Shown: positions 11,908 through 33,983 of the stretch, piece after piece | Position numbering within the stretch: the first letter of the stretch is position 1 | How the letters are laid out: the number at the start of each line of letters is the position of its first letter | Notes under the pieces: model-generated | What the model saw: only the letters and a program-made list of their open reading frames with translations | Database searches by the model: none | What the model was told of the DNA's origin: nothing | Program-made: the position numbers and the translations under genes | NCBI GenBank assembly: GCA_951800155.1 | Contig: CATOJL010000002.1 | Coordinates: forward strand, 1 to 33,983 | Reading direction: 5' to 3' | Length of the DNA: 33,983 bases | DNA from: an uncultured Bacilli bacterium | Lineage (GTDB): Bacteria; Bacillota_I; Bacilli_A; RF39; UBA660

Positions 11908-11911
11908 TAAA

Positions 11912-11933: not shown

Positions 11934-11991
11934 CTTTTATACATACAATTGTCAATAAGTGTCAAGCATATAGAATAAATGATACATTTTG

Positions 11992-12020
11992 TTGCATTTT
12001 TTGTAGAAAAATTATATAAT
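11992..12020 (+). promoter_or_regulatory. SigA-type promoter for the prepilin gene
   Basis: TTGCAT (11992-11997), an exact 17-nt spacer, then TATAAT (12015-12020), 24 nt upstream of the ATG. SD AAGGTGA at 12033-12039. Confidence 0.55.
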
Positions 12021-12043
12021 TCTTTTAAGGATAAGGTGATCTT

Positions 12044-12481
12044 ATGAAGAGGAAAGGTTTTACATTAATTGAGCTTTTAGCAGTTATCATTATTATTGCC
12101 ATTGTAGCACTAATCACAATTCCTGTTGTTTCTCATTTAATTGATGACTCTAAGAAAAATACATTTTCAAATAGTGTAACAGGGATGATTAAATCAATTG
12201 AGATGTATTCTACGAAAATTGCTGGAACGAATGTTGTTTTAGATTTAAGTCCTACGGGTGGAGATATTGGAAAGATTGATTTTAATGGACAGGATCCCGA
12301 ATTAGGAACTGCGTATATTAATGAAGATGGTAAAATTTCCATTTTTATGTGCAATGATGAATTTTGTGGATATAAAAGAATTACAGAGAAAAAAGTTATT
12401 ATAGAAGATAGAGATAGTGTGGCAAGTAATGACTTTCTATCTTTAGATGTGCAAGAGAAAATAAATTGGTTAAATCAATAG
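12044..12481 (+). CDS. Type IV pilin / pseudopilin-like protein with a prepilin-type N-terminal cleavage/methylation signal
   Basis: MKRKG|FTLIELLAVIIIIAIVALITIPVV shows the class III signal: G-1, F+1, E+5 and a hydrophobic helix. The C-terminal Cys pair (FMCNDEFCG) resembles a pilin D-region. No other pilus or competence machinery genes are in the window. Confidence 0.85.
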   Translation: MKRKGFTLIELLAVIIIIAIVALITIPVVSHLIDDSKKNTFSNSVTGMIKSIEMYSTKIAGTNVVLDLSPTGGDIGKIDFNGQDPELGTAYINEDGKISIFMCNDEFCGYKRITEKKVIIEDRDSVASNDFLSLDVQEKINWLNQ

Positions 12482-16264: not shown

Positions 16265-16278
16265 AGGAGGTGTAGGTT

Positions 16279-18866: not shown

Positions 18867-19148
18867 TGACAATAAGGAATAGATATAGTAAATTCAAATA
18901 TGTGAAGAATACTTGTAAATCATGTTGGAATAAACAGTGGAAATTGCTACAATCTATCTATCAATATCTAATTGATAATTATAATAGAATAGAAATTCAA
19001 TTAAAATGCAGTTTCATATATGCATATTGAGGAAAATGAAAATCAAACATTTTGTTTTATTCATAGAAATCAAAAGAACAATAACTATTTTCAATAAAAT
19101 GGATGAGTCTATATTGCTCTTTTCTTAAATTTGTAGTATAGTAATATT

Positions 19149-19219
19149 GCACAACACTTATATCTGAACCAGGTCAGAATCGGAAGATAGCAGCCTTAAG
19201 GATCTCTAAGTGTGTGTGC
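19149..19219 (+). ncRNA. ffs: Signal recognition particle RNA, small (4.5S-like) form
   Basis: ACCAGGUCAGAAUCGGAAGAUAGCAGCC matches the conserved SRP domain IV (E. coli ACCAGGUCAGGUCCGGAAGGAAGCAGCC) with a GGAA tetraloop. The closing helix pairs GCACAACACUUA with UAAGUGUGUGUGC, followed by a T-run. The ends are approximate. Confidence 0.85.
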
Positions 19220-19265
19220 TTTTTTATTAGATTTATATTAAGGTGAAATATATTGGTGATTAATT

Positions 19266-19807: not shown

Positions 19808-21535
19808 GTGTATCAAACTTTATATAGAAAATATAGACCTAGTAATTTTGATGAAGTTATAGGACAACAAGTTGTCGTAAAAACTTTGAAAAATGCTATT
19901 TTAAATAAAAAATTAACTCATGCATATTTATTTACAGGACCTAGGGGTACTGGAAAAACAAGTATTGCTAAAATATTTGCTAAAACGATCAATTGCTCCA
20001 ATTTGAATGAAACAAATCCATGCAACGCTTGTGAAAGTTGTTTGCAAATTTTAAGTAAAAAATCAATTGATATAATTGAAATTGATGCAGCCTCTAACAA
20101 TGGTGTCGATGAGATTAGAGAATTGAGAAGTAAGGCAAGCCTGGTTCCGACTGTTGGAAAATATAAGGTGTATATTATTGATGAAGTACATATGTTGACA
20201 CAAGGAGCTTTTAACGCACTATTAAAAACATTGGAAGAACCACCATCCCATATTGTCTTCATTCTAGCAACGACTGAACCACATAAAATTCCAACCACTA
20301 TCATTTCTAGGTGTCAAAAGTTTGATTTTAAAAAAATTGTAAAAGAAGACATTATTACAAAATTAAAATATATCATAGAGAAAGAAAATGTAATTGTGGA
20401 TGAAAATGCTTATGATGAAATTGCAATACAATCTGATGGATGTATGCGTGATGCACTTAGTATTTTAGATCAAGTAATTGCTTTTTCAAATAATCATGTT
20501 ACATTAGAAGATGTTCACGAAATCAATGGAACATTACCAGAACTTGAATTGATAGAGTTTATTAAGAATATGAAGGAGCAAAAATACGAACAAATATTCT
20601 ACAAAATAGAACAATATGAGAATATTGGAAAAAACTATATAAAATTAACTGAGGAATTTATGTCTGTTCTTCGAAATATTTTACTCTTTATAAATATACC
20701 TAATTGTGCATTTGATAGAGAAAGAAAAAAAACATATACAGAAATTGTATCTATATTTACGATGGAAGAAATTATGGAGTATATAAAAAAAATGAATGAG
20801 TACCTATTTGAAATGAAAAAAACAAATAATGTACGAATTTTGTTTGAAATGATGATTGTATCGCTTATGCAAAAAAGAGAAAATGTGGATTCTTTAAAAA
20901 AAGAGATTATAGAAAAAGAAAAAAAGGAGATATCTCTTTCAAACCTAAATGAACCACAAAAAGTAGAAATAGAATCTTCTATTTCGGAAGAAAAAGAGAA
21001 TATAGTAGAAACATTCAGTTCTTTAGAAGAAAGAAATGTATCTCAATCAGAAATACAAAATAATGTAGAGGTAACAGAAAAGATTCGAGAACTACAGCAA
21101 GTGCGTATTAATAACACTTTATATGGCTTTAATAAACAGAAAATGATTGAAATTAAAAATAAGATAGAGGATGTTAAAAAGCTACTACTAGATGCTGAAT
21201 ACAGTAATTATGCATCCATGATCTTAGATGCAGAAATAAAAGTGGCAAGTGAAGATCATATCATATTCTTATGTAAAAATGAAAGAATGGAAATGGAATT
21301 TTTACAAAATTTACCTTATATAGATATAACACTTGAAAAGGTGTTTGGTAAAAAAATGATTGCAAGTGCTACCAATTCAGCAAATTGGGCTATCATTAAA
21401 AATGAATTTAATAATAAGCTCAAGAAGTATGAATGGATGGAAGAGGCAGATGATATAAAAAAATATTATGAAAATCAAGAAATTGCATTGTCAATGATTG
21501 ATAATATTTTCAAAGATATAGTAGAATATAGTTAG
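19808..21535 (+). CDS. dnaX: DNA polymerase III subunit tau (DnaX)
   Basis: 575-aa ORF with a GTG start after AGGAGGGG. Walker A GPRGTGKTS, zinc module CNACESC, Walker B IIDEVHML, sensor SRCQKF. Confidence 0.96.
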   Translation: MYQTLYRKYRPSNFDEVIGQQVVVKTLKNAILNKKLTHAYLFTGPRGTGKTSIAKIFAKTINCSNLNETNPCNACESCLQILSKKSIDIIEIDAASNNGVDEIRELRSKASLVPTVGKYKVYIIDEVHMLTQGAFNALLKTLEEPPSHIVFILATTEPHKIPTTIISRCQKFDFKKIVKEDIITKLKYIIEKENVIVDENAYDEIAIQSDGCMRDALSILDQVIAFSNNHVTLEDVHEINGTLPELELIEFIKNMKEQKYEQIFYKIEQYENIGKNYIKLTEEFMSVLRNILLFINIPNCAFDRERKKTYTEIVSIFTMEEIMEYIKKMNEYLFEMKKTNNVRILFEMMIVSLMQKRENVDSLKKEIIEKEKKEISLSNLNEPQKVEIESSISEEKENIVETFSSLEERNVSQSEIQNNVEVTEKIRELQQVRINNTLYGFNKQKMIEIKNKIEDVKKLLLDAEYSNYASMILDAEIKVASEDHIIFLCKNERMEMEFLQNLPYIDITLEKVFGKKMIASATNSANWAIIKNEFNNKLKKYEWMEEADDIKKYYENQEIALSMIDNIFKDIVEYS

Positions 21536-21550
21536 AAAGAAGGATAATGA

Positions 21551-21847
21551 ATGAATATACAAGCAATGATGAAACAAGCACAGAAGTTACAAAAGGAAAT
21601 GATGGAAGAAAAAGGAAAAATTGATGCAATGCAATTTGAAGCAACCTCTTCTTTTGTCACAGTGACGATGACAGGAGATAAAAAAGTTAGTAGTGTAGAT
21701 ATTAATATGGAAATGCTAGAAAAAGAGGATATTGAGATTTTACAAGACCTAATCGTGGTTGCTACCAACGATTGCTTAAAACAAATTGATGCCGAAACAG
21801 AAAAGAGAATGGGAAAATATACACAGGGAATGCCAGGGTTATTTTAA
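21551..21847 (+). CDS. ybaB: YbaB/EbfC-family nucleoid-associated protein
   Basis: 98-aa ORF with MMKQAQKLQKEM at the N-terminus. It holds the conserved dnaX-ybaB-recR position. Confidence 0.92.
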   Translation: MNIQAMMKQAQKLQKEMMEEKGKIDAMQFEATSSFVTVTMTGDKKVSSVDINMEMLEKEDIEILQDLIVVATNDCLKQIDAETEKRMGKYTQGMPGLF

Positions 21848-22449
21848 TGAATTATCCAAATGTTATAAATGATTTAATAGAGTGCTTTAAAAAATTTTCT
21901 GGAATAGGAGAGAAAACAGCTGAACGTTTAGCGCTCTCCACATTAGAAATGGATGATGAAGTTTTACAAATTTTTTCAGAGGCTTTAAAAAGTGTGAAGA
22001 AAAAAATAAAGCGTTGCAAACGTTGTAACTATCTTACAGATGAAGAATTATGTACTATATGTAAAGATGACACATTTAGAGATAAGACAATTCTATGTGT
22101 AGTAGAAGAACCTAAAATAGTAACTTTGTTTGAAAAAATGGGAGGGTATCATGGACTGTATCATGTTCTCGATGGTTTAATTTCTCCCTTAGATGGGATC
22201 AATCCAGAGGATATTCAGATTGCATCTTTAATAGAGCGAATAAAAAAAGAAAATATACGAGAGGTTATTCTTGCAGTAAAACCAAGTGTGGAAGGGGAAA
22301 CGACAACTCTTTATATATCAAAGCTATTAGAAGGAATGGATGTCGTTGTTTCCAAAATTGCTCATGGTGTGCCAATTGGTATTGATATGGAATATATTGA
22401 TTCTTTGACTCTTGAAATGGCTTTAGAAGATCGTAAAAGTGTGACATAG
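21847..22449 (+). CDS. recR: Recombination protein RecR
   Basis: 200-aa ORF. HhH segment GIGEKTAERLA, C4 zinc finger CKRCNYL...CTIC, and a Toprim domain. Confidence 0.96.
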   Translation: MNYPNVINDLIECFKKFSGIGEKTAERLALSTLEMDDEVLQIFSEALKSVKKKIKRCKRCNYLTDEELCTICKDDTFRDKTILCVVEEPKIVTLFEKMGGYHGLYHVLDGLISPLDGINPEDIQIASLIERIKKENIREVILAVKPSVEGETTTLYISKLLEGMDVVVSKIAHGVPIGIDMEYIDSLTLEMALEDRKSVT

Positions 22450-22485
22450 TTTGGACACATAGGCGTAAAATGTATTGGTGATACA

Positions 22486-22671
22486 ATGAAAAAAATAATA
22501 GGCGCTCTTAAAAGAATTATGTTTAGTGGATTTTTGATTTATGGGTATAACATGCTAACGGTTTCCTACAATATGACAATTCCTATGAATGTAATCACAG
22601 TTGGGACAATTAGTGTTTTAGGTTTTCCAGCTCTTTTTTCATTCATACTAATAAAAAAAATGATTTTTTAA
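22486..22671 (+). CDS. bofA: BofA-family small membrane protein (pro-sigmaK processing inhibitor-like)
   Basis: 61-aa two-TM protein. IPMNVITVGTISVLGFPALFSFILIKKMI resembles B. subtilis BofA (IHVPINLVTTAISGILGIPGIAALVVIKQFI, from memory). It lies downstream of recR, as in Bacillus. Confidence 0.65.
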   Translation: MKKIIGALKRIMFSGFLIYGYNMLTVSYNMTIPMNVITVGTISVLGFPALFSFILIKKMIF

Positions 22672-22687
22672 AGAAAATAGGTGTATC

Positions 22688-23626
22688 ATGTTAGATGAGT
22701 ATAAAGAAAAGCAAAAAATAGTATATAAAATTTTAAATAATGCAATAAAACAAGATAGAATTAGTCATGCCTATTTGTTTGAAACAAATGGATATAAAGA
22801 TGCCAAAACAGTTGCCCTTTCCTTTGCAAAATCTTTATTTTGTCCAAATAAATATACAAATTATGAAAAATGTCTAGACTGTAAGCAGTGTGAAAATATT
22901 GATAAAAACAACTTTATTGAATTAAAATGGATAGAACCAGATGGCATGTGGATTAAAAAAGAACAATTGGATGAATTGCAAAAAGAATTTAGCATGAAAA
23001 GTGTAGCTGCGAATAAGAAAATATATATTATTAATCATGCAAATCAATTAAATGTTTCCTCTGCCAATACCATTTTAAAATTTTTAGAGGAGCCAAGCGA
23101 GAATATTGTGGCTATTTTACTTACAGAAAATGCATATCAAGTATTAGAAACGATCGTATCTCGATGCCAAATCATTTCTTTTCAAAAAAATAGAGATGAT
23201 CTTAATGATAAGATGATGCAGAAAGTATCCTTTTATATTTCTATTCCTGATATAATAGATGCAGAGGAGAAGTTAATAGAAAAAATTGAAACTATTGAAA
23301 AATTTGTGAAGATGATTGAAAAAAGAAAAGAAGAGGCACTTTTATTTACGCAACATCTCTGGCATGAACAAATGATAGGAAAAGAAATGAATCAATTTGC
23401 TCTTTCTATTATGTTCTATATATATCGTGATATGTTAGCAACAAAAGTACATACAGTTCCTTTCTTGTTTTCAAATACTCTCGTAGAAGAACTTGCAGAA
23501 AAAAATACAGTAAGTCAAATCAATCAAAAACTTAAAATAGTAAATGAAGCAAAAGAAAATATTAAATATAATGCAAATATGGCTTTATTATTAGATAAAT
23601 TAATTATAGAACTGAGTGATGTATAA
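22688..23626 (+). CDS. holB: DNA polymerase III subunit delta-prime (HolB)
   Basis: 312-aa ORF. ISHAYLFE, a Cys cluster CPN...CLDCKQC, ILKFLEEP, and SRCQ sensor motif. Confidence 0.9.
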   Translation: MLDEYKEKQKIVYKILNNAIKQDRISHAYLFETNGYKDAKTVALSFAKSLFCPNKYTNYEKCLDCKQCENIDKNNFIELKWIEPDGMWIKKEQLDELQKEFSMKSVAANKKIYIINHANQLNVSSANTILKFLEEPSENIVAILLTENAYQVLETIVSRCQIISFQKNRDDLNDKMMQKVSFYISIPDIIDAEEKLIEKIETIEKFVKMIEKRKEEALLFTQHLWHEQMIGKEMNQFALSIMFYIYRDMLATKVHTVPFLFSNTLVEELAEKNTVSQINQKLKIVNEAKENIKYNANMALLLDKLIIELSDV

Positions 23627-24414
23627 TGAAAGAAATCGTTGGAGTAACTTTACAAGAAAATGGGAAAATGGAATATTACTCTATAGATAAGTTCAAATTG
23701 AAAAAAGGTTATAATGTTTTAGTGAAAACAGATAGGGGCATTGAATTTGGAAAAGTAGTAACAGATATTCATCCCATAGATACGAGTAAACTAAAAAAAG
23801 AGTTAAAATCGATTTATAAATTAGCGACGAAACAAGATTATTACACACATCGAAAAAATATGAAAGATGCGAAAGATGCTTACCGAAAATGTCAGACTTT
23901 AGCACATAAACATAAACTGGATATGCGAATACTAGATGCAAATTATACATTTGATAGAGATCAATTGATGTTTAAATTTTATGCAGAAGCAAGAGTCGAT
24001 TTTAGAGAACTTACGAAAGAATTAGCGGCCATTTATAAAACGAGAATCGAATTAAGACAAGTAGGCGTTCGTGATAAAGCAAAACAAATAGGAGGGTATG
24101 GTTCGTGTGGACAAACTCTCTGTTGTTCAAGATTCTTAAATGATTTTGATTCTGTATCAATTTCTATGGCTAAAAATCAAAATATTTCTCTAAATCCATC
24201 GAAGATTAATGGAATTTGTGGCCGACTTCTTTGTTGTTTAAAATATGAAGATGCATGTTATAAAGAATGTAAAAAAGGATTACCAGTTTTGGGTAGTGAG
24301 GTAGAAACAAAAGAAGGAAAAGGGAAAGTTATACAGATTGATATTTTAAATCGAACTTATAAAATTCTTCTAACAAATGGAAATATAATGGAGGAAACTT
24401 GTGCAGAAAATTAA
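23626..24414 (+). CDS. ricT: PSP1-domain protein RicT (YaaT)
   Basis: 262-aa ORF. Cys-rich PSP1 C-terminal region (GSCGQTLCCSRFL, ICGRLLCCLKYE). It holds the conserved position after holB. Confidence 0.9.
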   Translation: MKEIVGVTLQENGKMEYYSIDKFKLKKGYNVLVKTDRGIEFGKVVTDIHPIDTSKLKKELKSIYKLATKQDYYTHRKNMKDAKDAYRKCQTLAHKHKLDMRILDANYTFDRDQLMFKFYAEARVDFRELTKELAAIYKTRIELRQVGVRDKAKQIGGYGSCGQTLCCSRFLNDFDSVSISMAKNQNISLNPSKINGICGRLLCCLKYEDACYKECKKGLPVLGSEVETKEGKGKVIQIDILNRTYKILLTNGNIMEETCAEN

Positions 24415-25120
24415 TTATTTGCTTGGATTTCCTCACTTAAAAATTTATCAAGATGAGGAATGGTTTAAATTTTCCCTTGATTCAGTTCTTTTACCTAATT
24501 TCGTAAAAATCAAAAAAAATACAAAAAAAATCTTAGATATCGGAACAGGGAATGCTGTCATTCCGATTCTTTTATCCACAAAAACAGAAGTTCCCATTTT
24601 AGGTGTTGAAATACAACGAGATGTTTACGAACTGGCTAAACTCTCTATTTGTGAAAATAAATTAGAGGGACAAATTTCTATATTGTGTGAAGATATCAAG
24701 GAGTATACAAAAAGACAAGAGTCGGATTGCTTTGATTTAATTACTTGTAATCCCCCTTATTTTAAAATAGAAAAAAATGCAAATATCAATGATGATCTGC
24801 ATAAACAATATGCTAGACATGAGATCTTATTAGATATAAATACCTTAATGTTAAGTGCTCGAAAACTACTCAAAAATGGAGGAACTCTATCTATTGTCCA
24901 TCGACCAAAACGCCTTATGGAAATTTTGCTATGTGCAAAAGAAAAAAAATTGGAGCCAAAACGGATTCAATTTGTCTATCCAAAAAAAGGAAAAGAAGCA
25001 AACATTGTTTTAATGGAATTTATTAAAAATGGAAATAGTGGACTTAAAATAGAAGAGCCTCTTTATATATACAATGAACAAGGGGAGTATACAGAACAGA
25101 TGCAGAAAAATTTTAGTTAG
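24401..25120 (+). CDS. SAM-dependent N6-adenine methyltransferase, YabB / tRNA1(Val) m6A37 methyltransferase-like
   Basis: 239-aa ORF. SAM motif LDIGTGNAV and catalytic NPPY (ITCNPPYF). It overlaps the ricT 3' end. Confidence 0.85.
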   Translation: MQKINYLLGFPHLKIYQDEEWFKFSLDSVLLPNFVKIKKNTKKILDIGTGNAVIPILLSTKTEVPILGVEIQRDVYELAKLSICENKLEGQISILCEDIKEYTKRQESDCFDLITCNPPYFKIEKNANINDDLHKQYARHEILLDINTLMLSARKLLKNGGTLSIVHRPKRLMEILLCAKEKKLEPKRIQFVYPKKGKEANIVLMEFIKNGNSGLKIEEPLYIYNEQGEYTEQMQKNFS

Positions 25121-25130
25121 AAGGTGCTAT

Positions 25131-25970
25131 ATGAGTCAAAAAAGTTATGATAATAGTCCGACCGTATATTTGATTCCAACTCCAATTGGAAATATGGAAG
25201 ATATTACATTGCGAGCCATTCATACATTAGAGAAGGTAGAAGTCATTTTTTCAGAGGATACGAGAGTAACAGGGTTACTCTTAAAGCAGTTGGAAATTAA
25301 AAAAAAGTTGATTTCAAGTCACAATTATAATGAAATTAAAAATGCAGAAAAATTTCTTTCCTATTTAAGAAATGGTTTTGATGTAGGGATTGTCACCGAT
25401 CGTGGGACACCGATCATTAGTGATCCCGGATATGAATTAGTCAAAATAGCGATTCAAAATAATTATAATGTTGTAGGATTGCCGGGCCCTACTGCTCTAA
25501 TACCTGCTCTCATAACATCAGGACTTGATCCATCTCCTTTTTTGTTTTATGGATTTCTAAATAGCAAACCAACAAAACAAAAGAAAGAACTTGAAGATTT
25601 AGAGAAAATGAAAGCTACTTTAATCTTCTATGAAGCGCCTCACCGTTTACTAAATACGCTACAGGTTATGAAAGAGGTTTTGGGAAATAGAAAGGTAAGC
25701 ATTTCCCGGGAAATATCAAAGAAATTTGAGGAAATATATCGAGGAAATTTAGAGAATATTTCCACTGAGCTTGTTGACATCAAAGGTGAAATTGTTATAA
25801 TTATAGAAGGATATAAAAAAGAAGAAAATTATAGTGAAATTCCCCTTTTAGAACACGTGCAATCTTTCATAGAAAAAGGCTATTCTTCTAAAGAAGCTAT
25901 TAAAGAAGTCGCACATCTTCGAGGATTAAATAAAAACATAGTTTATCAAGAATACCATCGAGGTGATTAA
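25131..25970 (+). CDS. rsmI: 16S rRNA (cytidine1402-2'-O)-methyltransferase RsmI
   Basis: Tetrapyrrole-methylase-fold N-terminus LYLIPTPIGN..DITLRA, then EDTR and ISDPG motifs. The start is placed at ATG 25131 after GAAGGTG. The track start at 25074 overlaps the previous gene without an SD. Confidence 0.92.
   Translation: MSQKSYDNSPTVYLIPTPIGNMEDITLRAIHTLEKVEVIFSEDTRVTGLLLKQLEIKKKLISSHNYNEIKNAEKFLSYLRNGFDVGIVTDRGTPIISDPGYELVKIAIQNNYNVVGLPGPTALIPALITSGLDPSPFLFYGFLNSKPTKQKKELEDLEKMKATLIFYEAPHRLLNTLQVMKEVLGNRKVSISREISKKFEEIYRGNLENISTELVDIKGEIVIIIEGYKKEENYSEIPLLEHVQSFIEKGYSSKEAIKEVAHLRGLNKNIVYQEYHRGD
25701..25714. promoter_or_regulatory. Perfect match to the Noc-binding site (NBS) consensus palindrome
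   Basis: ATTTCCCGGGAAAT is read directly in rsmI. It is identical to the B. subtilis NBS consensus as I recall it. A 14-mer with a 6-nt G/C core is very unlikely by chance in this AT-rich DNA. Confidence 0.6.
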
Positions 25971-26531
25971 ATGAAATTAGTTGTAGGACTTGGAAATGTG
26001 GGGCGCGAATACCAAAATACAAGGCATAATATAGGATTTATGTGCTTGGATAGAATCGCAGAAGCTTTTCATGTACAGTTTAATCGAAAAAAGTTGAATG
26101 GTTCTTATGCAGAAATTATTTATCAAAATGAAAAAGTGATTTTGCTTAAACCAGAAAAATATATGAATTTATCGGGCGAAGTTATAGCGGCTTTTATAAG
26201 ATTTTATAAAATTTCTCCCGTAGACTTATTCGTAATCAGTGATGATTTGGATATGCCGACTGGAAAAATTAAGTTGAAATATAAAGGTTCAAGTGGTGGA
26301 CATAATGGACTTAAAGATATTGAAAAAAATTTAGGGACACAGGAATATAAAAGATTGAAGATAGGGATTGCAAATAATAAAAAAATGGATACGAGAGATT
26401 ATGTTTTAGGGAAATTTAGTAAGGATGAGAAGCAAATAATAGAAGAAACCCTCACTTTAATTCCAAAAATATTTATGGATTATTTAGATTTAGATTTTGA
26501 TAATGTCATGAATAAATATAATAAGAAATAG
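25971..26531 (+). CDS. pth: Peptidyl-tRNA hydrolase
   Basis: 186-aa ORF. GLGNVGREYQNTRHNIGF and GGHNGLKDI motifs. Confidence 0.96.
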   Translation: MKLVVGLGNVGREYQNTRHNIGFMCLDRIAEAFHVQFNRKKLNGSYAEIIYQNEKVILLKPEKYMNLSGEVIAAFIRFYKISPVDLFVISDDLDMPTGKIKLKYKGSSGGHNGLKDIEKNLGTQEYKRLKIGIANNKKMDTRDYVLGKFSKDEKQIIEETLTLIPKIFMDYLDLDFDNVMNKYNKK

Positions 26532-26546
26532 GAATATTTCTTTTTT
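26524..26546 (+). terminator. Putative intrinsic terminator or attenuator between pth and mfd
   Basis: AGAAATA-ggaa-TATTTCT followed by TTTTT. The stem overlaps the pth stop codon. Confidence 0.5.
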
Positions 26547-26564
26547 GTGCTAGGAGGATAGAAA

Positions 26565-29500
26565 ATGAAAATATTTAAACAATTATTTGATGTGCAGGGT
26601 TCGGAACATAAGATTATGGGCTTAACGAAACAATTGCAAGCTATTTATATTTATAATTTATTTGTGAAAGAGAAAAAATCCATTTTACTTGTAACAAGTA
26701 GTCTTTTTGAAGCAAATCAAATGTATCAAATGCTTATGAATTTCACAAATGAGGTTTCCTTATTTCCAATGGATGAATTCTTGACGAGTGAAGCACTTGC
26801 TACCAGTCCCGAATTTACAGTAACAAGACTAGAAACATTGAACCGTATAATAGAAAACTCTCCTCAAATTGTCGTTACCAATATAATGGGTTTTCTTCGT
26901 TTTCTTCCTCAAAAAGGGCAATATAAAAATTCCTATGTTGTTTTAGAAAAAGGAAAAGAATACTCTTTTAACGAAGTGAGTGAAAAAATAGGAAATATAG
27001 GTTATAGTCGTGAGGCTATAGTAACCAAAACGGGTGAAGTGGCTATAAGAGGATTTGTTCTCGATATTTTTCCAATTTCTTTTGAAAAACCAATTCGCAT
27101 TGAATTTTGGGGAGATGAAATTGAATCCATAAGAACTTTTGACGTCGAAACACAAAGAACTTTGGAAGAAATAGATCATGTAACGATTCCTCCAAATACA
27201 GAATTTCTTGTTCCAAATATACAAGATGTGACTTCCTACAAACAAAAAAATCTGTATAAATATACTGAAGTTTCTATGGTAAGTGCTTATTTAGAACAGC
27301 CTATTATTATTTACAATGACTATACATCGTTTATGTCAAATTATGAATTATTGACAGAAGATATACAAAGATATAGAGAAGATGCTTTAGAAGAAAAAGA
27401 CCAAAAATATATGCATTCGCTTGAAGATATGGATAAATATGAGAAACTATATTTTCAAAAGGATGACAATGATTTCGTCCCTATCAAGAATGCACAAAAA
27501 TATATAAGTCATGAAATCGATCAGAATTTTAGAAAAATGGCACCTTTAGAAGTTACACTTACTAAATATCTAAAAGAAAAGAAAACCATTGTTTGTTGTT
27601 TAAAAAACCGATACCAAGTGAATCATTTAAATGAGTTACTTAGGGAAGAGAATATAGTACTTACCAATGAAGAAGAAATTTACGAAGGAAAAATAAATTT
27701 TATTATTCATCCCCTAGAAATGGGTTTTCTCTATGAAAATTATGTTGTACTTAGTGAGAATGATCTGTTTCATGATAACAGTAAAGTAGCCAAATATAAA
27801 ACGAATTTTCAATATGGGAGTAAAATAAAAGATATTACTAAATTAAATATCGGAGATTATATTGTTCATTCTGTTCATGGTATAGGTAGATATAATGGAT
27901 TAAAAACACTTGTGAAAAATGGTATAAAAAAAGATTACCTGCAAATTGAATATCGTGATGGGGATAAACTTTATATACCTGTTGAAAAAATTGATTTTAT
28001 TAGTAAATATTCCTCAAATGAGTCAATTGTCCCTAAAATTAATAAATTAGGAAGTACAGAATGGGAAAAAACGAAATTAAAGGTTCGAAAGAAAATTGAA
28101 AATATTGCGGGGAAATTATTACAATTGTATGCGGCACGTGAAGCAGCAGTTGGAATCCAATTTTCTTTGGATATTGCAGAACAAGCAATTTTTGAAAGTA
28201 ATTTTCCTTATGAGGAAACAAAAGATCAACTTCGCGTTATGGAAGAAATTAAAGCAGATATGGAAAATAAAAAACCGATGGATCGACTTGTATGTGGGGA
28301 TGTGGGGTATGGGAAAACAGAGCTCGCTTTTCGAGCCATGTTTAAAGCCGTTGCCTCTGGTTATCAAGCGGCTTACCTTTGTCCAACAACGATTTTATCG
28401 GATCAGCATTATCAAAATGCATTAAAAAGATTTGCAGGTTTTCCAGTTAGAATTGCCATTTTAAATCGTTTTGTTTCCCCTAAAAAAGTGAAAGAAACAT
28501 TAAATGATTTAGAAAAAGGACAAATAGATATTATAATAGGGACACATCGTTTACTTAGTAATGATGTCCATTATCACAATTTAGGACTTCTTGTAGTTGA
28601 TGAGGAACAACGCTTTGGGGTAAAACATAAAGAAAAAATAAAAGAATTAAAAACAAATATAGATATACTCACTCTATCAGCGACACCAATACCTAGAACT
28701 TTACAAATGTCTATGACAGGGATTCGTAGCTTATCCTTATTAGAAACGCCGCCAGTCAATCGTTTTCCTATTCAAACTTATGTTCTTGAAGAAAATAGTG
28801 TTATCATCAAGGATGCTATTTATAAGGAATTAGCGCGAGATGGACAAGTATTTATTTTGTATAATCATGTTGAAGATATGGAGTTGAAACAGAAGGAGAT
28901 TGAAAAACTTGTTCCAGAGGCAAGAGTTGTGTATGCGCATGGACAATTGTCTAAAAATGAACTAGAAAATATTATGAAGAAATTCATTCAAAAGGAATAT
29001 GATGTTCTTTTATGCACAACTATTATTGAAACAGGAATTGATATTCCAAATGTAAATACACTATGTATTATGGATGCCGATCGATTTGGCTTATCACAAC
29101 TTTATCAAATAAGAGGACGAGTGGGACGTAGTGATAAAATTGCTTACTGTTATTTAATGTATACGAAGGGAAAAACACTAAGTGATGTTTCCAATAAGCG
29201 CTTACAAGTTATTAAAGAATTTACAGAACTTGGAAGTGGATTCTCCATTGCCATGCGTGATTTATCCATTCGTGGCGCAGGAGATATTTTAGGGAGTGAG
29301 CAAGCTGGATATATTGATACAGTTGGCATTGAACTTTATTTAAAAATGTTAAATGAAGAAGTTGATCGTTTACACGGCAAAGTAGTAGAAACTGAAGAAG
29401 AAAGCGAGCAACCACTATTGGATGTAGAAACTGCAATTACGGATGATTATGTAACTGATACCGACATTAAGATAGAAATTCATAAAAAAATCAATACGAT

Positions 29501-29870
29501 TGATTCTTATGATAAGTTAGTGGAGGTTAAAAATGAACTAGAAGATCGTTTTGGTAAAATTAGTGATTCTTTAGTTATTTATATGCATGAAGAGTGGTTT
29601 GAGAAATTGGCTAAAAGATTACATATTAAAAAAGTTCGACAAACCGCTAATTTTATTGAGATTACAATTCCAGAAGAGTTAGGAATGGCTTTAGATGGAC
29701 AAAGTTTATTTTTAGATATCTTATCAATTAGTAAAATGTTTCGCTTTGGACACCAAGGAAAACAACTCCTTATTATTCTTGATATTGTCAAATTAGACAA
29801 ACACTTTATCTATTATTTAATTGACTTGATGAATGTTTTAGAAAAGTGTAAGAAAAAGGAAAATGAATAA
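26565..29870 (+). CDS. mfd: Transcription-repair coupling factor Mfd
   Basis: 1101-aa ORF. It has a UvrB-homology N-terminus and a CarD/RID-like region (GDYIVHSVHGIGRY). The SF2 translocase motifs are GDVGYGKTE, DEEQRFG and QLYQIRGRVGR. Confidence 0.97.
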   Translation: MKIFKQLFDVQGSEHKIMGLTKQLQAIYIYNLFVKEKKSILLVTSSLFEANQMYQMLMNFTNEVSLFPMDEFLTSEALATSPEFTVTRLETLNRIIENSPQIVVTNIMGFLRFLPQKGQYKNSYVVLEKGKEYSFNEVSEKIGNIGYSREAIVTKTGEVAIRGFVLDIFPISFEKPIRIEFWGDEIESIRTFDVETQRTLEEIDHVTIPPNTEFLVPNIQDVTSYKQKNLYKYTEVSMVSAYLEQPIIIYNDYTSFMSNYELLTEDIQRYREDALEEKDQKYMHSLEDMDKYEKLYFQKDDNDFVPIKNAQKYISHEIDQNFRKMAPLEVTLTKYLKEKKTIVCCLKNRYQVNHLNELLREENIVLTNEEEIYEGKINFIIHPLEMGFLYENYVVLSENDLFHDNSKVAKYKTNFQYGSKIKDITKLNIGDYIVHSVHGIGRYNGLKTLVKNGIKKDYLQIEYRDGDKLYIPVEKIDFISKYSSNESIVPKINKLGSTEWEKTKLKVRKKIENIAGKLLQLYAAREAAVGIQFSLDIAEQAIFESNFPYEETKDQLRVMEEIKADMENKKPMDRLVCGDVGYGKTELAFRAMFKAVASGYQAAYLCPTTILSDQHYQNALKRFAGFPVRIAILNRFVSPKKVKETLNDLEKGQIDIIIGTHRLLSNDVHYHNLGLLVVDEEQRFGVKHKEKIKELKTNIDILTLSATPIPRTLQMSMTGIRSLSLLETPPVNRFPIQTYVLEENSVIIKDAIYKELARDGQVFILYNHVEDMELKQKEIEKLVPEARVVYAHGQLSKNELENIMKKFIQKEYDVLLCTTIIETGIDIPNVNTLCIMDADRFGLSQLYQIRGRVGRSDKIAYCYLMYTKGKTLSDVSNKRLQVIKEFTELGSGFSIAMRDLSIRGAGDILGSEQAGYIDTVGIELYLKMLNEEVDRLHGKVVETEEESEQPLLDVETAITDDYVTDTDIKIEIHKKINTIDSYDKLVEVKNELEDRFGKISDSLVIYMHEEWFEKLAKRLHIKKVRQTANFIEITIPEELGMALDGQSLFLDILSISKMFRFGHQGKQLLIILDIVKLDKHFIYYLIDLMNVLEKCKKKENE

Positions 29871-29887
29871 ATATTTATAAAATAACA

Positions 29888-29916
29888 TTGACTATTTGTG
29901 AAAAAGAGAGTATTTT
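29888..29916 (+). promoter_or_regulatory. Candidate promoter at the cassette 5' edge
   Basis: TTGACT (29888-29893), 17-nt spacer, TATTTT (29911-29916). It is identical in unit 2 (33226-33254). The -10 is weak, and this promoter would give a 5' leader of about 175 nt. Confidence 0.35.
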
Positions 29917-30023
29917 AAAATTATAAATATGTGGCAGTATCTATACGTATTTATTAAAAGTAGTATTGTTTTTAGCTAGATAAAGACGAAAGAATATTTT
30001 TAATACATATTGATAACTGCTAA

Positions 30024-30059
30024 ATGATGAAAAAGTGCATCAATCTCTTTTCTTTCTAA
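30024..30059 (+). CDS. Possible 11-codon leader uORF (MMKKCINLFSF; MMKKYINLFSF in unit 2)
   Basis: ATGATGAAAAAGTGCATCAATCTCTTTTCTTTCTAA. Its last five codons and the stop lie inside the 5' arm of the leader hairpin. No recognisable SD lies upstream, so translation is unproven. Confidence 0.25.
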   Translation: MMKKCINLFSF

Positions 30060-30097
30060 ACACAATCTATAATTTTAGAAAGAAAGGAGGTTTTTTT
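30045..30097 (+). promoter_or_regulatory. Leader hairpin that sequesters the Shine-Dalgarno sequence and resembles an intrinsic terminator
   Basis: CTCTTTTCTTTCTAAA (30045-30060) pairs with TTTAGAAAGAAAGGAG (30074-30089): 15 Watson-Crick pairs plus 1 G-U, with a 13-nt loop. The 3' arm contains the AAGGAG SD. It is followed by G, T7 and the ATG. An identical copy lies at 33383-33435. Confidence 0.65.
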
Positions 30098-30484
30098 ATG
30101 AAATATGGAAAATATGTACTTACATTTGTGACAGTATTTCTATTTTGTATGATTTCAAATGCATCGGCAATCACTAAAACAAGTTTTTCAATTGAAACAG
30201 GTGCTAGTTGGGCAAAAGATATTGCAAGTACAGCACATAAAATAGAAGGAAATCATTTTTCAGCTGTAGAATGGACATACTCAAACAAAGCGAGTCATAA
30301 GATGTGGTTTCGAGTAATAGATGACTTTGGAAAAGTTAGAGGATCAGGACTTTTAAATTATCTTTCTACTGATGCGTTTCAAACAAACTTAAAATATGAT
30401 GATAATTTAAATTATGTTCTTGAAGCAAAACGTGAGCATATAACAAATCCACGAACTCTTGTTAAAGGGAAATGGACACCATAG
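30098..30484 (+). CDS. Small Sec-secreted protein, unknown family (paralog A, 128 aa)
   Basis: ATG lies 8 nt after AAGGAGG. The signal peptide MKYGKYVLTFVTVFLFCMISNASA has an AXA cleavage site. The mature part is about 104 aa, Cys-free and apparently beta-rich. The track's upstream GTG (30035) extension is rejected. Confidence 0.85.
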   Translation: MKYGKYVLTFVTVFLFCMISNASAITKTSFSIETGASWAKDIASTAHKIEGNHFSAVEWTYSNKASHKMWFRVIDDFGKVRGSGLLNYLSTDAFQTNLKYDDNLNYVLEAKREHITNPRTLVKGKWTP

Positions 30485-30498
30485 TTAAATATGTAGAG

Positions 30499-30531
30499 AA
30501 GGGGATTATAGTACAACAGATCCCCTTTTTT
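30499..30531 (+). terminator. Intrinsic terminator after small secreted protein A
   Basis: AAGGGGAT-13 nt loop-ATCCCCTT followed by TTTT. Confidence 0.7.
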
Positions 30532-30636
30532 ACAAGTCTTTGTCTTACCTAGTTTATTTGTGATAGCTTATTTAAAGGGATTTAGTGAGTTATCCTAAGT
30601 AAATTAAAAGAATGTATAGAATAGGGAAGTGTGCTT

Positions 30637-33192
30637 ATGATAGAGTTAAAAAAAATAAAGAAAGAATATAAGATTAAAAAGAAGAAAGTACAAGCCTTAG
30701 ATAATGTTAGTCTGATCTTACCTAATAAAGGAATGATTTCTATCTTAGGAGCAAGTGGAAGTGGGAAGAGTACGTTATTAAATATAATAGGTGGATTAGA
30801 TTCTTATGATTCTGGGGAGATGTTTGTTGATGGAGAAAATACAAAAAGTTTTAGTGAAAAAGAGTATGCGAAATATAGAAATAGTTATGTAGGATTCATT
30901 TTTCAAGAGTTTTGTTTGGTAGAAGAATATACAGTTTATGAAAATATAGCTTTAGTAGAACAACTACAAAAGGGGAAAGAGAACCCAGAACATATCAAGG
31001 AACTACTAAAAAAAATAGGATTAGAGGGGTATGAAAATAGAAAAATATATGAATTATCAGGAGGACAAAAGCAAAGAGTAGGAATTGCTCGTATTTTAGT
31101 AAAAGAGCCAAGAATAATCTTAGCCGATGAACCAACAGGTGCATTAGATAGAAAAACAGGAAAAGAAGTGATGGACTTATTAAAAGAAATAAGTAAGGAA
31201 ATATTAGTTGTATTTGTAACACATAATAGAGAGTATGCGTTAGAATATGGAGAAAGAATCATAGAGTTAGAGGATGGAAAAATCATAAAAGATACAAAAG
31301 AACAACAAGAAATTGAAAAAGAGAAGATAGAATATGAAAGTAAGGAAGCAAAGCTACCATTTAAGTATGCATTTAAACTAGGCAGGAAATTATTAACACA
31401 CCATAAAATAAGATTAAGTATATCAATTCTACTCATGACACTATCGAGTATGTTTTTAATCTATGCCTATTTTGGATTAACGTATGATATAGATGAACAA
31501 CACTTTGCAATATTAAAAAATAAAAATATTGATACTATAGAAATTGATAAGTCACAACACGGTATAAAAATAACAGATCGATCTCCTTTTCCATTAAAGA
31601 ACATGGATAAAGATTATATACAATCCAAATTAAATAGTCCATCGTATCCATTATATGAAATAGATGAAAATACAGATATTGCTCCATTTTTCAATACAAA
31701 TGTATATATACAAGAAGATATGTTCAATGATCCAAAAGAAGAACCAACCAATTTGTATACAAATAATCATATGATCTTAAAATTTGTCGAATTAGAAGAT
31801 GTAGATAAAAAATTGCCAATAGAGGAAGAGGTGATTGGGAGATATCCTATTCACAATCATGAAATTATGATATCGAATTATGTAGCAGATTTAATGATCA
31901 AGTATGGAATTTATGAGTATAAAAAGGATAGAGTTTATTATCCAAAAAGTTATGAGGAACTGGTAAATTCTTCAAAACTATTTCAATTTGGAAGTTATAA
32001 CTCTTGTAAAATCGTTGGAATAATTGATTATGATTTGCGTCCTTATGAAGAATTAAAAAAGTATATTTTTGGTGATTGGGATCATATGCCTGAATCTGTT
32101 TTTGAAATGTACCAAGAACTATACAGTAAACAAAGACAACTATATAATAAAGTATATATGAGTCAAGCGTTTATTAAAAATATGAAATATCCTGACAATC
32201 GAGAAATTGATAGTAATCACAATGTTATAGAATTGAAAATGGATAACCAAAAACTGTCAGGAACAAATTATATACGTGAACCTGTTACATACTATGATGG
32301 AAAAGAATGGAAGAAAATAGATACTTTAAAGGATAATGAAGTTTTAGTAAACATAAATTCTTTTGTAGAAGATTATGCGGATGCATTCGAATCTTATTTT
32401 GCTAGATATCCTGATCGCCCTATAGAAGAAGTAAAAAAAGAGTTTTTGTTACAGCAATTACCAAAGGAAAATATTATTGGAAAAGAGCTAAGATTAGAAA
32501 TTTATGAAGATACTATAAAATTGTCTAATCTATTTGAAAAGAAAGAAGAACCAGACAAAGTATATACGAATTTAAAGATCATTGGAATTATAGATACGAC
32601 AAGTAGTTATAGTAACCTAGTATCAAAAAATCTATTAAAAGAGTATCAAAAAGACTATTTTAGTTTAAAACGGATCCTTGTTTATGAAAATGATAGCAAA
32701 AAATTGAAAGAAATTTTTCATACTTTTCCTTATGAAGGAGATTATGTTATTAATAGTATTTATTCTACAGAGAGTATTTATAATGTTTTTCTTGGTGTTA
32801 AAGATATGATAATCCTATTATTTTTGGTATTTTTAATTCTATCTTTCGCATTAATTAGTAATTTTATGATGAGTAATGTTTTAGATTACAAAAAAAAAAT
32901 AGGAATATTACGTGCATTAGGTGCAACAAGAAAAGATATATTTAAAATATTTTTGATTCAAATTATTATTTTAGTATTTATCTTATTCTTTTTTAATTTA
33001 ATTGGAATGAAGATAGCAACAATTTATCTTTCCTATATGTACTCTACACCAGAAGCCTTTACATTTTATTATAACATGCGCCTTCTTTTGCTATTGTTAT
33101 GCTATTTAATAATAAGTATAACCATAGCAAGCATTTTACCTATATTAAGAATAACAAAACTAAAACCAGTAGAGGCTATTAGAAATGAGTGA
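30637..33192 (+). CDS. Fused ABC transporter, ATPase + MacB/FtsX-type permease, with a very large extracytoplasmic domain
   Basis: The NBD carries Walker A GASGSGKST, signature LSGGQKQR, Walker B ILADEPTGALD and H-loop VTHN. TM1 spans about aa 260-283 (track numbering), followed by a soluble domain of about 440 aa. Three C-terminal TMs end in the FtsX-like tail KLKPVEAIRNE. The start is placed at ATG 30637 (MIELKKIKKEY). Confidence 0.9.
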   Translation: MIELKKIKKEYKIKKKKVQALDNVSLILPNKGMISILGASGSGKSTLLNIIGGLDSYDSGEMFVDGENTKSFSEKEYAKYRNSYVGFIFQEFCLVEEYTVYENIALVEQLQKGKENPEHIKELLKKIGLEGYENRKIYELSGGQKQRVGIARILVKEPRIILADEPTGALDRKTGKEVMDLLKEISKEILVVFVTHNREYALEYGERIIELEDGKIIKDTKEQQEIEKEKIEYESKEAKLPFKYAFKLGRKLLTHHKIRLSISILLMTLSSMFLIYAYFGLTYDIDEQHFAILKNKNIDTIEIDKSQHGIKITDRSPFPLKNMDKDYIQSKLNSPSYPLYEIDENTDIAPFFNTNVYIQEDMFNDPKEEPTNLYTNNHMILKFVELEDVDKKLPIEEEVIGRYPIHNHEIMISNYVADLMIKYGIYEYKKDRVYYPKSYEELVNSSKLFQFGSYNSCKIVGIIDYDLRPYEELKKYIFGDWDHMPESVFEMYQELYSKQRQLYNKVYMSQAFIKNMKYPDNREIDSNHNVIELKMDNQKLSGTNYIREPVTYYDGKEWKKIDTLKDNEVLVNINSFVEDYADAFESYFARYPDRPIEEVKKEFLLQQLPKENIIGKELRLEIYEDTIKLSNLFEKKEEPDKVYTNLKIIGIIDTTSSYSNLVSKNLLKEYQKDYFSLKRILVYENDSKKLKEIFHTFPYEGDYVINSIYSTESIYNVFLGVKDMIILLFLVFLILSFALISNFMMSNVLDYKKKIGILRALGATRKDIFKIFLIQIIILVFILFFFNLIGMKIATIYLSYMYSTPEAFTFYYNMRLLLLLLCYLIISITIASILPILRITKLKPVEAIRNE

Positions 33193-33382
33193 TTTCATGA
33201 AAAAAGCAAAAATTGAAAAATGACATTGACTATTTGTGAAAAAGAGAGTATTTTAAAATTATAAATATGTGGCAGTATCTATACATATTTATTAAAAGTA
33301 GTATTGTTTTTAGCTAGATAAAGACGAAGGAATATTTTTAATACATATTGATAACTGCTAAATGATGAAAAAGTACATCAAT

Positions 33383-33435
33383 CTCTTTTCTTTCTAAACA
33401 CAATCTATAATTTTAGAAAGAAAGGAGGTTTTTTT
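33383..33435 (+). promoter_or_regulatory. Second copy of the SD-sequestering, terminator-like leader hairpin
   Basis: Sequence identical to 30045-30097. The uORF copy at 33362-33397 differs by one codon (Cys to Tyr). Confidence 0.65.
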
Positions 33436-33819
33436 GTGAAATATGGAAAATATGTACTTACATTTGTGACAGTATTTCTATTTTGTATGATTTCGAATGC
33501 ATCGGCGCTTAATGAAATACCTTTTTCTATTACTACCGATGGTATTTGGGTTGCAGATACTTTTAATGCGGCAAAGAAAATAGAAGGAAATCATTTTTCA
33601 GCAGTAAGATGGAAGAAATCAAGTCAAAGTGCGAATCATAAAATGTGGTTTCGAGTAACAGATGGTCAAGGAAGTATACAAGGATCAGGACTTTTAAATT
33701 ATCTTGCCTTAGATGCATTTAAAACGGATTTAACATATGGAAAAGTTTATCAACTTGAAGCAAAGCGTGAAAAATCTACAGGTTCAAAGGTTACTGTTTC
33801 AGGAACATGGGTACCATAG
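33436..33819 (+). CDS. Small Sec-secreted protein, unknown family (paralog B, 127 aa)
   Basis: GTG start in the position equivalent to paralog A's ATG. The 24-aa signal peptide is identical. By hand alignment the mature part is about 50% identical to paralog A, with conserved islands KIEGNHFSAV, HKMWFRV, GSGLLNYL and LEAKRE. Confidence 0.85.
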   Translation: MKYGKYVLTFVTVFLFCMISNASALNEIPFSITTDGIWVADTFNAAKKIEGNHFSAVRWKKSSQSANHKMWFRVTDGQGSIQGSGLLNYLALDAFKTDLTYGKVYQLEAKREKSTGSKVTVSGTWVP

Positions 33820-33833
33820 TTAAATATGTAGAG

Positions 33834-33867
33834 AAGGGGATTATAGTACAACAGATTCCCCTTTTTT
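33834..33867 (+). terminator. Intrinsic terminator after small secreted protein B
   Basis: AAGGGGA...TCCCCTT followed by a T-run. It is the same element as 30499-30531 with a 1-nt insertion. Confidence 0.65.
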
Positions 33868-33972
33868 ACAAGTCTTTGTCTTACCTAGTTTATTTGTGAT
33901 AGCTTATTTAAAGGGATTTAGTGAGTTATCCTAAGTAAATTAAAAGAATGTATAGAATAGGGAAGTGTGCTT

Positions 33973-33983
33973 ATGATAGAGTT
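33973..33983 (+). CDS. Start of the second fused ABC transporter gene (partial, runs off the window)
   Basis: ATGATAGAGTT and 150 nt of upstream sequence are identical to the start region of the 30637 gene. Confidence 0.7.

Follow-up and report, generated by a model that had tools for sequence, protein, structure and literature searches.

The operon of lactococcin 972 combines a Sec-dependent bacteriocin with a membrane protein and an ATP-binding cassette (ABC) ATPase that are thought to give immunity. In the present study, we analyzed a locus of apparently comparable logic at the end of a 33,983-nt stretch of DNA from an uncultured mouse-gut Bacilli bacterium (contig CATOJL010000002.1, positions 1–33,983; the whole stretch is referred to as the window). 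Downstream of mfd, a unit comprising a long leader, a gene for a small secreted protein (SP) and a gene for a fused ABC transporter is tandemly repeated. By analogy, this arrangement seems to resemble known bacteriocin/ABC-immunity modules as well as modules of a type VII ABC transporter and its partner protein.

Like lactococcin 972, SP is an unmodified, Cys-free secreted protein with a Sec signal peptide, and ABC genes lie downstream of its structural gene. In contrast, mature lactococcin 972 has 66 aa, whereas mature SP has 104 aa and is modeled as an 8-strand jelly roll, and the transporter of the locus is a fused MacB-type protein. A comparison of both proteins with hhalign gave a probability of 0.3% (the Lcn972 sequence was verified as PDB entry 2LGN). 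PF09683 and TIGR01653 matched neither SP1 nor SP2, the products of the two units (E ≤ 1), and were absent from the 25 families listed for 77 members of the SP family (E ≤ 0.1); 2LGN was not among the 50 PDB matches listed by Foldseek for the SP model. Kinship with lactococcin 972 was ruled out by hhalign and Foldseek, which agrees with an earlier interpretation of this DNA (the sequence-only reading).

With MacB and further ABC systems of type VII, the transporter shares the N-terminal fused nucleotide-binding domain (NBD), four transmembrane (TM) segments, a large domain that separates TM1 from TM2, and the C-terminal FtsX domain. It differs in the size of the extracytoplasmic domain (ECD; ~430 aa in ABC1, roughly twice that of MacB), in the lack of a MacA/HlyD-type adaptor gene (the window and contigs L001 and L021 have none from mfd to metG), in the tandem duplication of the ABC gene together with a small secreted protein, and in a cytoplasmic half that is homogenized between the copies while the exterior and membrane half has diverged. 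YknXYZ, a MacB-family pump, protects against SDP, and AS-48EFGH is listed as a possible exporter of AS-48 (PMC5985334). According to PMC12646458, all four type VII ABC systems of E. coli use an extracytoplasmic partner. Systems of this kind include MacAB-TolC, FtsEX-EnvC, LolCDE-LolA and the recently solved YbbAP-TesA. The latter structure (PDB 9GE8) was among the Foldseek matches of ABC1.

Distant SP clusters are similar to LanFEG systems in that an ATPase with TIGR03740 as best model and two to three polytopic membrane proteins stand right after the secreted-protein gene. In contrast to LanFEG loci, they contain no lantibiotic biosynthesis machinery, their product is an 11-kDa Sec-exported protein, their ATPase scores far under the model cutoff and their membrane proteins match no family. 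The window locus has lost the separate ATPase of these distant clusters. BceAB systems consist of a separate ATPase, a 10-TM permease and a two-component system, whereas the ABC described here is fused, has four TM segments and comes without histidine kinase or response regulator. Finally, polymorphic toxin and cassette-swapping loci likewise show a conserved 5' trafficking part, a variable functional part, recombinants and copy-number variation. However, the array contains no recognizable toxin domain, small immunity gene or silent orphan cassettes; each copy is a full promoter-bearing unit, and the co-diversifying partner is an 850-aa ABC.

Homogenized flanks and diverged cores

All features of the array lie on the forward strand. 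The segment 29870–30169 is directly repeated as 33208–33507 with a spacing of 3338 nt, and more repeat blocks follow up to the window end. The mfd gene stops with TAA at 29868–29870, and similarity between the units sets in 15 nt past this stop, with 29885 (unit 1) and 33223 (unit 2) as first positions. The 213-nt leaders (29885–30097 and 33223–33435), each comprising a promoter and a ~180-nt 5' untranslated region (UTR), differ by exactly three mismatches (29946, 29991, 30037; 1.4% divergence). SP1 (30098–30484) encodes a 128-aa secreted protein with its signal peptide at 30098–30169 and its mature domain at 30170–30481, and SP2 (33436–33819) a secreted protein of 127 aa. Their 24-aa signal peptides are the same at the protein level, with one synonymous difference. 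The mature domains are only 53% identical in aa and 69% in nt sequence, with two indels (1 aa and 2 aa) and 58–77% identity per 60-nt window; the short islands KIEGNHFSAV, HKMWFRV, GSGLLNYL and LEAKRE are found in both. The ~165 nt after the SP stop codon (30485–30647 versus 33820–33983) again differ by a single 1-nt indel. In all these points, the layout described by the sequence-only reading was reproduced.

ABC1 extends from 30637 to 33192, while only the first 11 nt of ABC2 (33973–33983) precede the contig end; the full ABC2 gene is most likely represented by L001 10540–13098 (852 aa). The comparison of ABC1 and ABC2 with the Nei-Gojobori method revealed two features absent from the earlier description. 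The homogenized tract spans ~900 nt through the entire ATPase domain, and the exterior and membrane parts of the ABC have diverged between the units as well. Tract A of unit 1 (30460–31087), which covers the SP 3' end, the terminator and the beginning of the ABC gene and is identical to unit 2 or has one indel, is the repeat at which short-read assemblies break. The ATPase domains share 99% aa identity with a synonymous substitution rate (dS) of 0.015, and the linker plus TM1 share 94% (dS 0.146), as compared to 77% for the ECD (aa 284–720; dS 0.43) and 69% for TM2–4 (dS 0.49). Within the ECD, blocks with a dS of 0.09–0.16 alternate with blocks of 0.5–1.45. The ratio of nonsynonymous to synonymous rates (dN/dS) is 0.35–0.40 across the ECD and TM2–4. 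The ABC paralogs of successive units are thus not identical, a possibility that the sequence-only reading had left to be checked. For SP, dS amounts to 0.13 in the signal peptide and 0.50 in the mature core (dN 0.375), giving a core dN/dS of 0.75, compared to 0.1–0.4 elsewhere. Because the core dS is high, the cores are old at silent sites and do not reflect the fast evolution of a young duplicate. The strong diversifying selection offered earlier as one explanation was therefore not borne out, as the core dN/dS is raised yet remains below 1. In contrast, the argument that point mutation after one duplication cannot produce the observed contrast holds, given a dS of 0.015 in the ATPase domain and 1.4% divergence in the leader versus a dS of 0.50 in the SP core.

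Comparison with related species showed the same separation of flanks and cores. Leaders are 99–100% identical within a genome and 85–87% between species, and post-SP spacers 100% and 61–68%, respectively. Conversely, the SP2 core is 78% identical to sister-species cores versus 69% to SP1. Gene conversion that drives concerted evolution leaves such a reversal of within-genome and between-species identity as its signature. The domain pattern is repeated on contig L010 of a related species, where the leaders are 100% and the cores 80% identical, ABCa and ABCb do not differ over their last 900 nt, and divergence at the ECD start has reached saturation. In addition, contig L027 carries a natural recombinant: at the unit-2 position, its SP is of the SP1 type over the first ~195 nt and of the SP2 type thereafter. 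Its single breakpoint lies in the HKMWFRV island, which at ~22 nt is below the larger k-mers of such assemblers. A second SP mosaic was found at the protein level (P0002). The ABC alleles of different assemblies appear as patchworks of two old segment types; some of them are possibly chimeric, and they were given less weight.

Based on these sequence comparisons, we consider it highly probable that the array arose by tandem duplication, followed by gene conversion of the flanks and the NBD, retention of old cores and occasional formation of core mosaics. In this scenario, conversion would keep two tracts near-identical, namely one with the promoter, structured 5' UTR and signal peptide, and one that runs from the SP 3' end across the terminator and the cytoplasmic ATPase domain as far as TM1. 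The mature SP, the ECD and TM2–4 would escape conversion and remain anciently diverged, while conversion tracts may at times enter the cores via the short conserved islands and create new mosaics. Recombination through the flanks, one of the two explanations given by the sequence-only reading, is supported in the form of flank homogenization by both the identity reversal and the recombinant of L027. The locus offers a clear case of domain-resolved concerted evolution, with homogenized regulatory, secretion and cytoplasmic modules and divergent exposed and membrane parts. The divergence map would mark the surfaces responsible for specificity and thereby suggests defined chimeras.

Assembly of the tandem array

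All sequences compared in this study are short-read metagenome assemblies, and an assembly artefact (a chimeric contig or a collapsed strain mixture producing the duplication or the flank/core contrast) had to be considered. Such an artefact would fit the termination of the window within the repeat, the patchwork appearance of ABC alleles across assemblies and the existence of an alternative contig, L001, which omits unit 2. L001 agrees with the window at every position over 11 kb (20098–31087) and then has 318 differences up to 33205; after 31087, it switches to what is most likely the ABC2 sequence and continues with M271-M207-ABC787-DHH-spoVT-metG. Contig L002 of the same sample, which is 100% identical to window 31221–33975, is exactly the segment missing from L001. 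Together, L001 and L002 are the expected de Bruijn output of a two-unit tandem repeat sharing ~600 identical nt. Furthermore, the junction from the ABC 3' end through the leader into SP2 is reproduced in three further assemblies (L002, L004 and L027), two of them from different samples and a different assembler; L004, a SPAdes assembly of another sample, is 98.8% identical over the ABC-to-SP2 junction. An identical SP2 protein is encoded on six further contigs from six different samples, and in sample ERZ13410440 the mfd-SP1 and ABC-SP2 contigs occur together at equal coverage (6.8x and 7.1x). Finally, a single contig of a second species crosses two junctions. Altogether, we regard an artefact as extremely improbable; repeat geometry and independent contigs both confirm the tandem cassette array.

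The locus of the strain most likely reads mfd-[SP1-ABC1]-[SP2-ABC2]-M271-M207-ABC787, as no other path includes each segment exactly one time, and the ABC in L001 would therefore be ABC2. L001 as a genuine one-unit strain is less likely than an alternative assembly path, considering the 11 kb of 100% identity and the presence of the loop as L002. A direct extension of ABC2 beyond the window is impossible, as the contig stops inside the repeat. The earlier estimate that the unit repeats at least twice thus stands as regards the two units, whereas for this strain the number is most likely exactly two, with the array then running into M271-M207-ABC787. In the related species (metagenome-assembled genome (MAG) of uncultured Bacilli MGBC119797), L010 shows the order ABCa-SPb-ABCb-SPc with a like identity profile, and a further contig (L021) the order SPc-ABCc-M269-M214-ABC781-DHH-spoVT-metG. 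From these two contigs it follows that this species has at least three units. The window and L001 illustrate that a ~600-nt repeat leads to alternative, equally plausible short-read contigs, and paralog pairing in such loci is not to be taken from one contig alone.

The small secreted protein

SP1 and SP2 share the signal peptide MKYGKYVLTFVTVFLFCMISNASA (24 aa), a type I signal peptide with cleavage after ASA. Mature SP1 has 104 aa, 11.9 kDa and an isoelectric point of 9.2, and the mature domains of both proteins (103–104 aa) are hydrophilic, mildly basic and free of Cys. We discarded a lipoprotein interpretation, as FLFC does not constitute a lipobox and the relative P0006 has Ser in place of the Cys. 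The AlphaFold2 (AF2) model of SP shows eight beta-strands; from residue 31 onward, the mean pLDDT per 10-residue block is 79–92. Foldseek searches of this model against PDB and BFVD yielded weak jelly-roll matches (E 4e-4 to 1e-3, TM-score 0.4–0.55), including the TNF-like lectin PLTL, CBM36/61, PirA and viral C1q-type heads. This generic jelly-roll/C1q/TNF/CBM similarity was considered too weak for assigning a function.

At the sequence level, SP1 and SP2 gave no significant match in Pfam, NCBIfam, PHROGs or PADLOC, the SP profile found nothing significant among PDB sequences, and Pfam gave no significant match for the 77 family members searched. The sequence-only reading had likewise been unable to place the mature protein in a known family. 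An exhaustive hidden Markov model (HMM) search resulted in 78 clusters at 50% identity. Two of them, P0037 (a 4042-aa bacterial cadherin-repeat protein) and P0081 (a 2443-aa VWD/C8/TIL multi-domain protein), were removed as false positives whose significance is a sum of weak repeat matches, leaving about 76 clusters of nearly exclusively 112–159 aa. The conserved motifs of the family are W..S...SHKMWFRV and L.A.RE...DP.T.V.G.W.P. Members of the 10 clusters looked up are nameless or annotated as 'hypothetical protein', and almost all are metagenomic. SP founds a family without annotation, for which the structural model predicts a C1q/TNF-like beta-sandwich.

The MacB-type transporters

ABC1 comprises 851 aa when started from ATG 30637 or 853 aa from the in-frame GTG 30631; the spacing to the GGGAAG Shine-Dalgarno sequence favors the ATG. 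In agreement with the ATPase and FtsX domains named earlier, Pfam identified ABC_tran at aa 23–169 (5e-33) and FtsX at aa 729–846 (1.5e-13). The NBD covers aa 1–235 (30637–31341), the ECD approximately aa 284–712 (31486–32772) and TM2–4 aa 713–851 (32773–33189). Hydrophobic segments at 260–278, 713–749, 765–798 and 810–842 correspond to the MacB topology. The AF2 model of ABC1 (pLDDT 84.4) matched full-length MacB structures best in Foldseek (5LIL, 5GKO, 5LJ7 and 5NIK; E 6e-30 to 2e-26, target-normalized TM-score 0.56–0.63). With its fused NBD, four TM segments, FtsX domain and predicted MacB fold, ABC1 is a MacB-type (type VII) transporter, as judged from domain models and structure prediction. 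By E-value, the best NCBIfam match of its ATPase is TIGR03608 (lactococcin-972-type bacteriocin ABC), with 204.4 bits, which is under the cutoff of 254.85.

Downstream of the array, the last ABC gene overlaps the start of M271, and M271, M207 and ABC787 overlap each other (L001 13091–16849; L021 3168–6922). These overlaps indicate translational coupling within a tail operon. The ABC787 paralog is shorter, has a smaller extracytoplasmic domain and shares ~40% identity with the ABCs of the sister species. M271 and M207 match no Pfam family; in NCBIfam, M271 has no match and that of M207 is not significant (E 0.15). A search with M271 retrieved only seven clusters, all unnamed.

Gene neighborhoods of the SP family

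ABC systems follow the SP gene in every case examined among relatives with 29–39% identity. For example, the SP of L031/L032 (36% identical to SP1) is accompanied by three polytopic membrane proteins, a 209-aa ATPase and an 856-aa fused ABC of the MacB type, which shares 35% identity with ABC1. Similarly, the SP of L011 (37%) is followed by M293, M211, M235 and an ATPase, and that of L015 (35%) by an M271-like protein, M209 and a fused ABC. In L033/L034 (37%), SP is followed by three membrane proteins and an ATPase, with a fused ABC nearby; here, DDE transposase genes at 6991–7626 and 11420–12091 bracket the SP cluster, which hints at a mobile module. In L012 (6173–8496), an ATPase fragment of 133 aa comes directly after the SP gene, then the polysaccharide deacetylase gene also present in L011, and the three membrane-protein genes are absent; it looks like a decayed form of the L011 cluster (L011 3559–8337).

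M271 is homologous across clusters at 31–46% identity and itself lacks annotation. No Pfam model matched M271 and M207 of L001, the three membrane proteins of L011 or two of L023, and NCBIfam gave no significant match for the membrane proteins of L001 and L011 (best E 0.003). The separate ATPases of L011 and L023 find their best NCBIfam model in TIGR03740 (lantibiotic protection) with 107–164 bits versus a cutoff of 309.75. L023 contains two clusters (3971–10586 and 13974–17972) in which a small secreted protein is joined by three membrane proteins and a LanF-like ATPase, in the first also by a fused MacB-type ABC; a serine recombinase gene is located on the same contig. The secreted proteins at the head of these clusters have 143 and 148 aa. 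They were rejected as SP homologues (HMM E ≥ 7e-4 in a search of 13 sequences) and belong to no family that was matched. The shared layout with unrelated proteins at its head suggests a broader theme in which the secreted protein is exchangeable.

The mfd-to-DHH position of a third species is occupied by a gene for a 225–229-aa protein (L017 9159–9848, L018 9171–9848) followed by ABC850 and ABC788. ABC850 is 70% identical to ABC1, and the locus is without SP, M271 or M207. The 225–229-aa protein is unrelated, has N-terminal TM helices and matched no family. SP always adjoins ABC systems, yet an ABC can occur without SP, and the number of SP/ABC units in the related species is 0, 2 or at least 3. 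Regarding the earlier caveat that the ABC paralogs might turn out to be unlinked to the small genes in other genomes, linkage is kept across distant SP relatives, whereas the 70%-identical ABC of the third species stands without SP.

Leader and terminators

A promoter-like site within the homogenized leader (TTGACT, 17 nt, TATTTT) is located at 29888–29916 in unit 1 and 33226–33254 in unit 2. L010 and the distant L015 retain TTGACT and its surroundings; the leader with its promoter is recognizably homologous upstream of the L015 SP, even though the protein is only 35% identical. The 5' UTR is predicted to fold with a minimum free energy of −48 kcal/mol (z −5.95 versus shuffles). In unit 1, it would form a long hairpin P1 (~29933–30021) and a stem of ~18 bp (30044–30090) that pairs CUCUUUUCUUUCU with the Shine-Dalgarno sequence AAAGGAGG, thereby burying it; the corresponding hairpin of unit 2 lies at 33382–33428. 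The SP gene begins with ATG in unit 1 and with GTG in unit 2. Structured copies of the leader were located at 29933–30090 and 33271–33428 of the window, L010 2100–2326 and L015 1090–1321. Both hairpins are retained in L010 and L015, with five compensatory pairs across the three lineages (RNAalifold), and a search of 29000–33983 against Rfam 15 gave no match for the leader at E ≤ 1. The leader is a candidate for a new cis-regulatory RNA for translational control of SP.

Between SP1 and ABC1, a terminator-like hairpin of 16 bp followed by a T-run was found at 30493–30533 (dG −21.3, z −6.9). Equivalent hairpins lie 3' of the SP gene in unit 2 (33828–33869; dG −19.2, z −4.5), L010 and L015. As this terminator is present in every lineage checked, SP is predicted to be produced in excess over ABC.

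Possible functions of the SP/ABC units

We tentatively prefer the reading that SP is a secreted effector and the neighboring ABC its cognate self-protection pump, and rate it at somewhat less than an even chance. It is favored by the linkage of SP and ABC across two transporter architectures, which are both nearest to bacteriocin-protection models, by the terminator implying an SP excess, and by the raised dN/dS of the core (0.75) together with the shifts in copy number between species. The ABC pair without SP in one species is reminiscent of orphan immunity, and MacB-family pumps are already tied to own secreted toxins, as in the case of YknXYZ and SDP (PMC5985334). Moreover, the transposase and recombinase flanks and the analogous clusters with unrelated secreted proteins indicate an accessory, swappable module. 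Mechanistically, SP would act outside the cell as an abundant Sec-exported binding protein of 11–12 kDa with a C1q/TNF-like beta-sandwich and bacteriocin-like effect, its translation being gated by the leader that sequesters the Shine-Dalgarno sequence. The MacB-type ABC, expressed after a leaky terminator, would clear cognate SP from the producer envelope, or hold it off, by ATP-driven mechanotransmission. M271-M207-ABC787, or the three membrane proteins and LanF-like ATPase of distant clusters, might add protection, and keeping at least two divergent pairs could broaden the target and immunity range. Several observations weigh against this proposal: searches of Pfam, NCBIfam, PHROGs, PADLOC, PDB sequences and Foldseek related SP to no toxin, bacteriocin or enzyme, all family members looked up are unnamed or hypothetical, the core dN/dS is below 1, and the locus contains neither a small dedicated immunity gene nor a regulator. 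Furthermore, SP core and ECD distances are uncorrelated (Mantel r 0.27, p 0.24; six units, underpowered), and the co-variation considered by the sequence-only reading was not detected; a marginal correlation was observed between SP core and TM2–4 (r 0.55, p ~0.05, six units). In addition, the pairing of SP and ABC within each unit was deduced across a ~600-nt repeat from short-read metagenome assemblies, and some ABC mosaics are possibly chimeric contigs.

The main rival holds that SP is the extracytoplasmic partner of the neighboring type VII ABC, which would do mechanical work on or through SP (e.g. passing on a membrane-derived molecule), with the units being specialized paralogous machines. 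The MacB fold of ABC1, the outside partners of all four E. coli type VII systems (PMC12646458), the duplication of the adjoining SP and ABC as a pair, the divergence of the exterior parts of both proteins and an SP fold that is a binding domain and not an enzyme would all suit such a partnership. It sits poorly with the SP terminator, as a large SP excess is unlike a stoichiometric subunit, and with distant relatives beside LanFEG-like transporters, some of which lack an adjoining fused MacB-type gene (L011, L033). Considering also the ABC without SP that is 70% identical to ABC1 and the missing SP/ECD co-variation, we regard this explanation as rather unlikely. Still less probable, in our estimate, is a role of SP as a secreted or envelope lectin-like binder of host, phage or matrix, which diversifies under immune or phage pressure while the ABCs provide general antimicrobial-peptide resistance and merely share the operon. 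The weak best folds (TNF-like lectin, CBM36/61, C1q-type heads), the gut-dwelling organism (an MGBC MAG), the raised dN/dS, the mosaic paralogs and the occurrence of the ABC without SP are compatible with a binder. Yet the fold matches are weak (TM-score 0.4–0.55), a functional link is suggested by the linkage of SP and ABC, which persists at 29–39% SP identity and in two transporter architectures, and the exterior and membrane parts of the ABC diverge in step with the duplication, unlike in a generic resistance pump.

Taken as a whole, the explanation combining the evolutionary scenario with an effector and its self-protection pump comes close to an even chance of being the best one. The earlier proposal of an antagonism/immunity or ligand/receptor module fits the gene neighborhoods of the family, while its functional part is still conjectural. 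A more far-reaching version, which we consider doubtful, would see SP as an unrecognized class of exported C1q/TNF-like effectors, each matched to a MacB-type pump, and the array as a diversity generator under control of a new Shine-Dalgarno-sequestering leader RNA. Gene conversion would keep the expression, secretion and ATPase modules interchangeable, while new specificities would arise by shuffling blocks of the exposed SP core and of the exterior and membrane domains of the pump, so that the array would be a bacteriocin/immunity or ligand/pump counterpart of antigenic-variation cassettes. If SPs are antagonistic effectors, they would represent a new type of protein bacteriocin whose immunity mechanism is of the MacB type; if they act as partners, Gram-positives would also come under the rule by which each type VII ABC works with a partner outside. 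A family of about 76 clusters without annotation is consistently tied to ABC transporters in gut Firmicutes-like bacteria.

Genomic context

Further upstream, the order and sizes of open reading frames (ORFs) between 8330 and 18828 of the window resemble dnaA/dnaN/recF/gyrB/gyrA on the forward strand from 9271 onwards, while ORFs before 8698 lie on the opposite strand. If this reading of an origin region, based on ORF sizes and order, is right, the cassette array would be located ~20 kb from oriC and co-oriented with replication. Between this region and the array, a bacterial small signal recognition particle (SRP) RNA was identified at 19139–19235 (63.3 bits).

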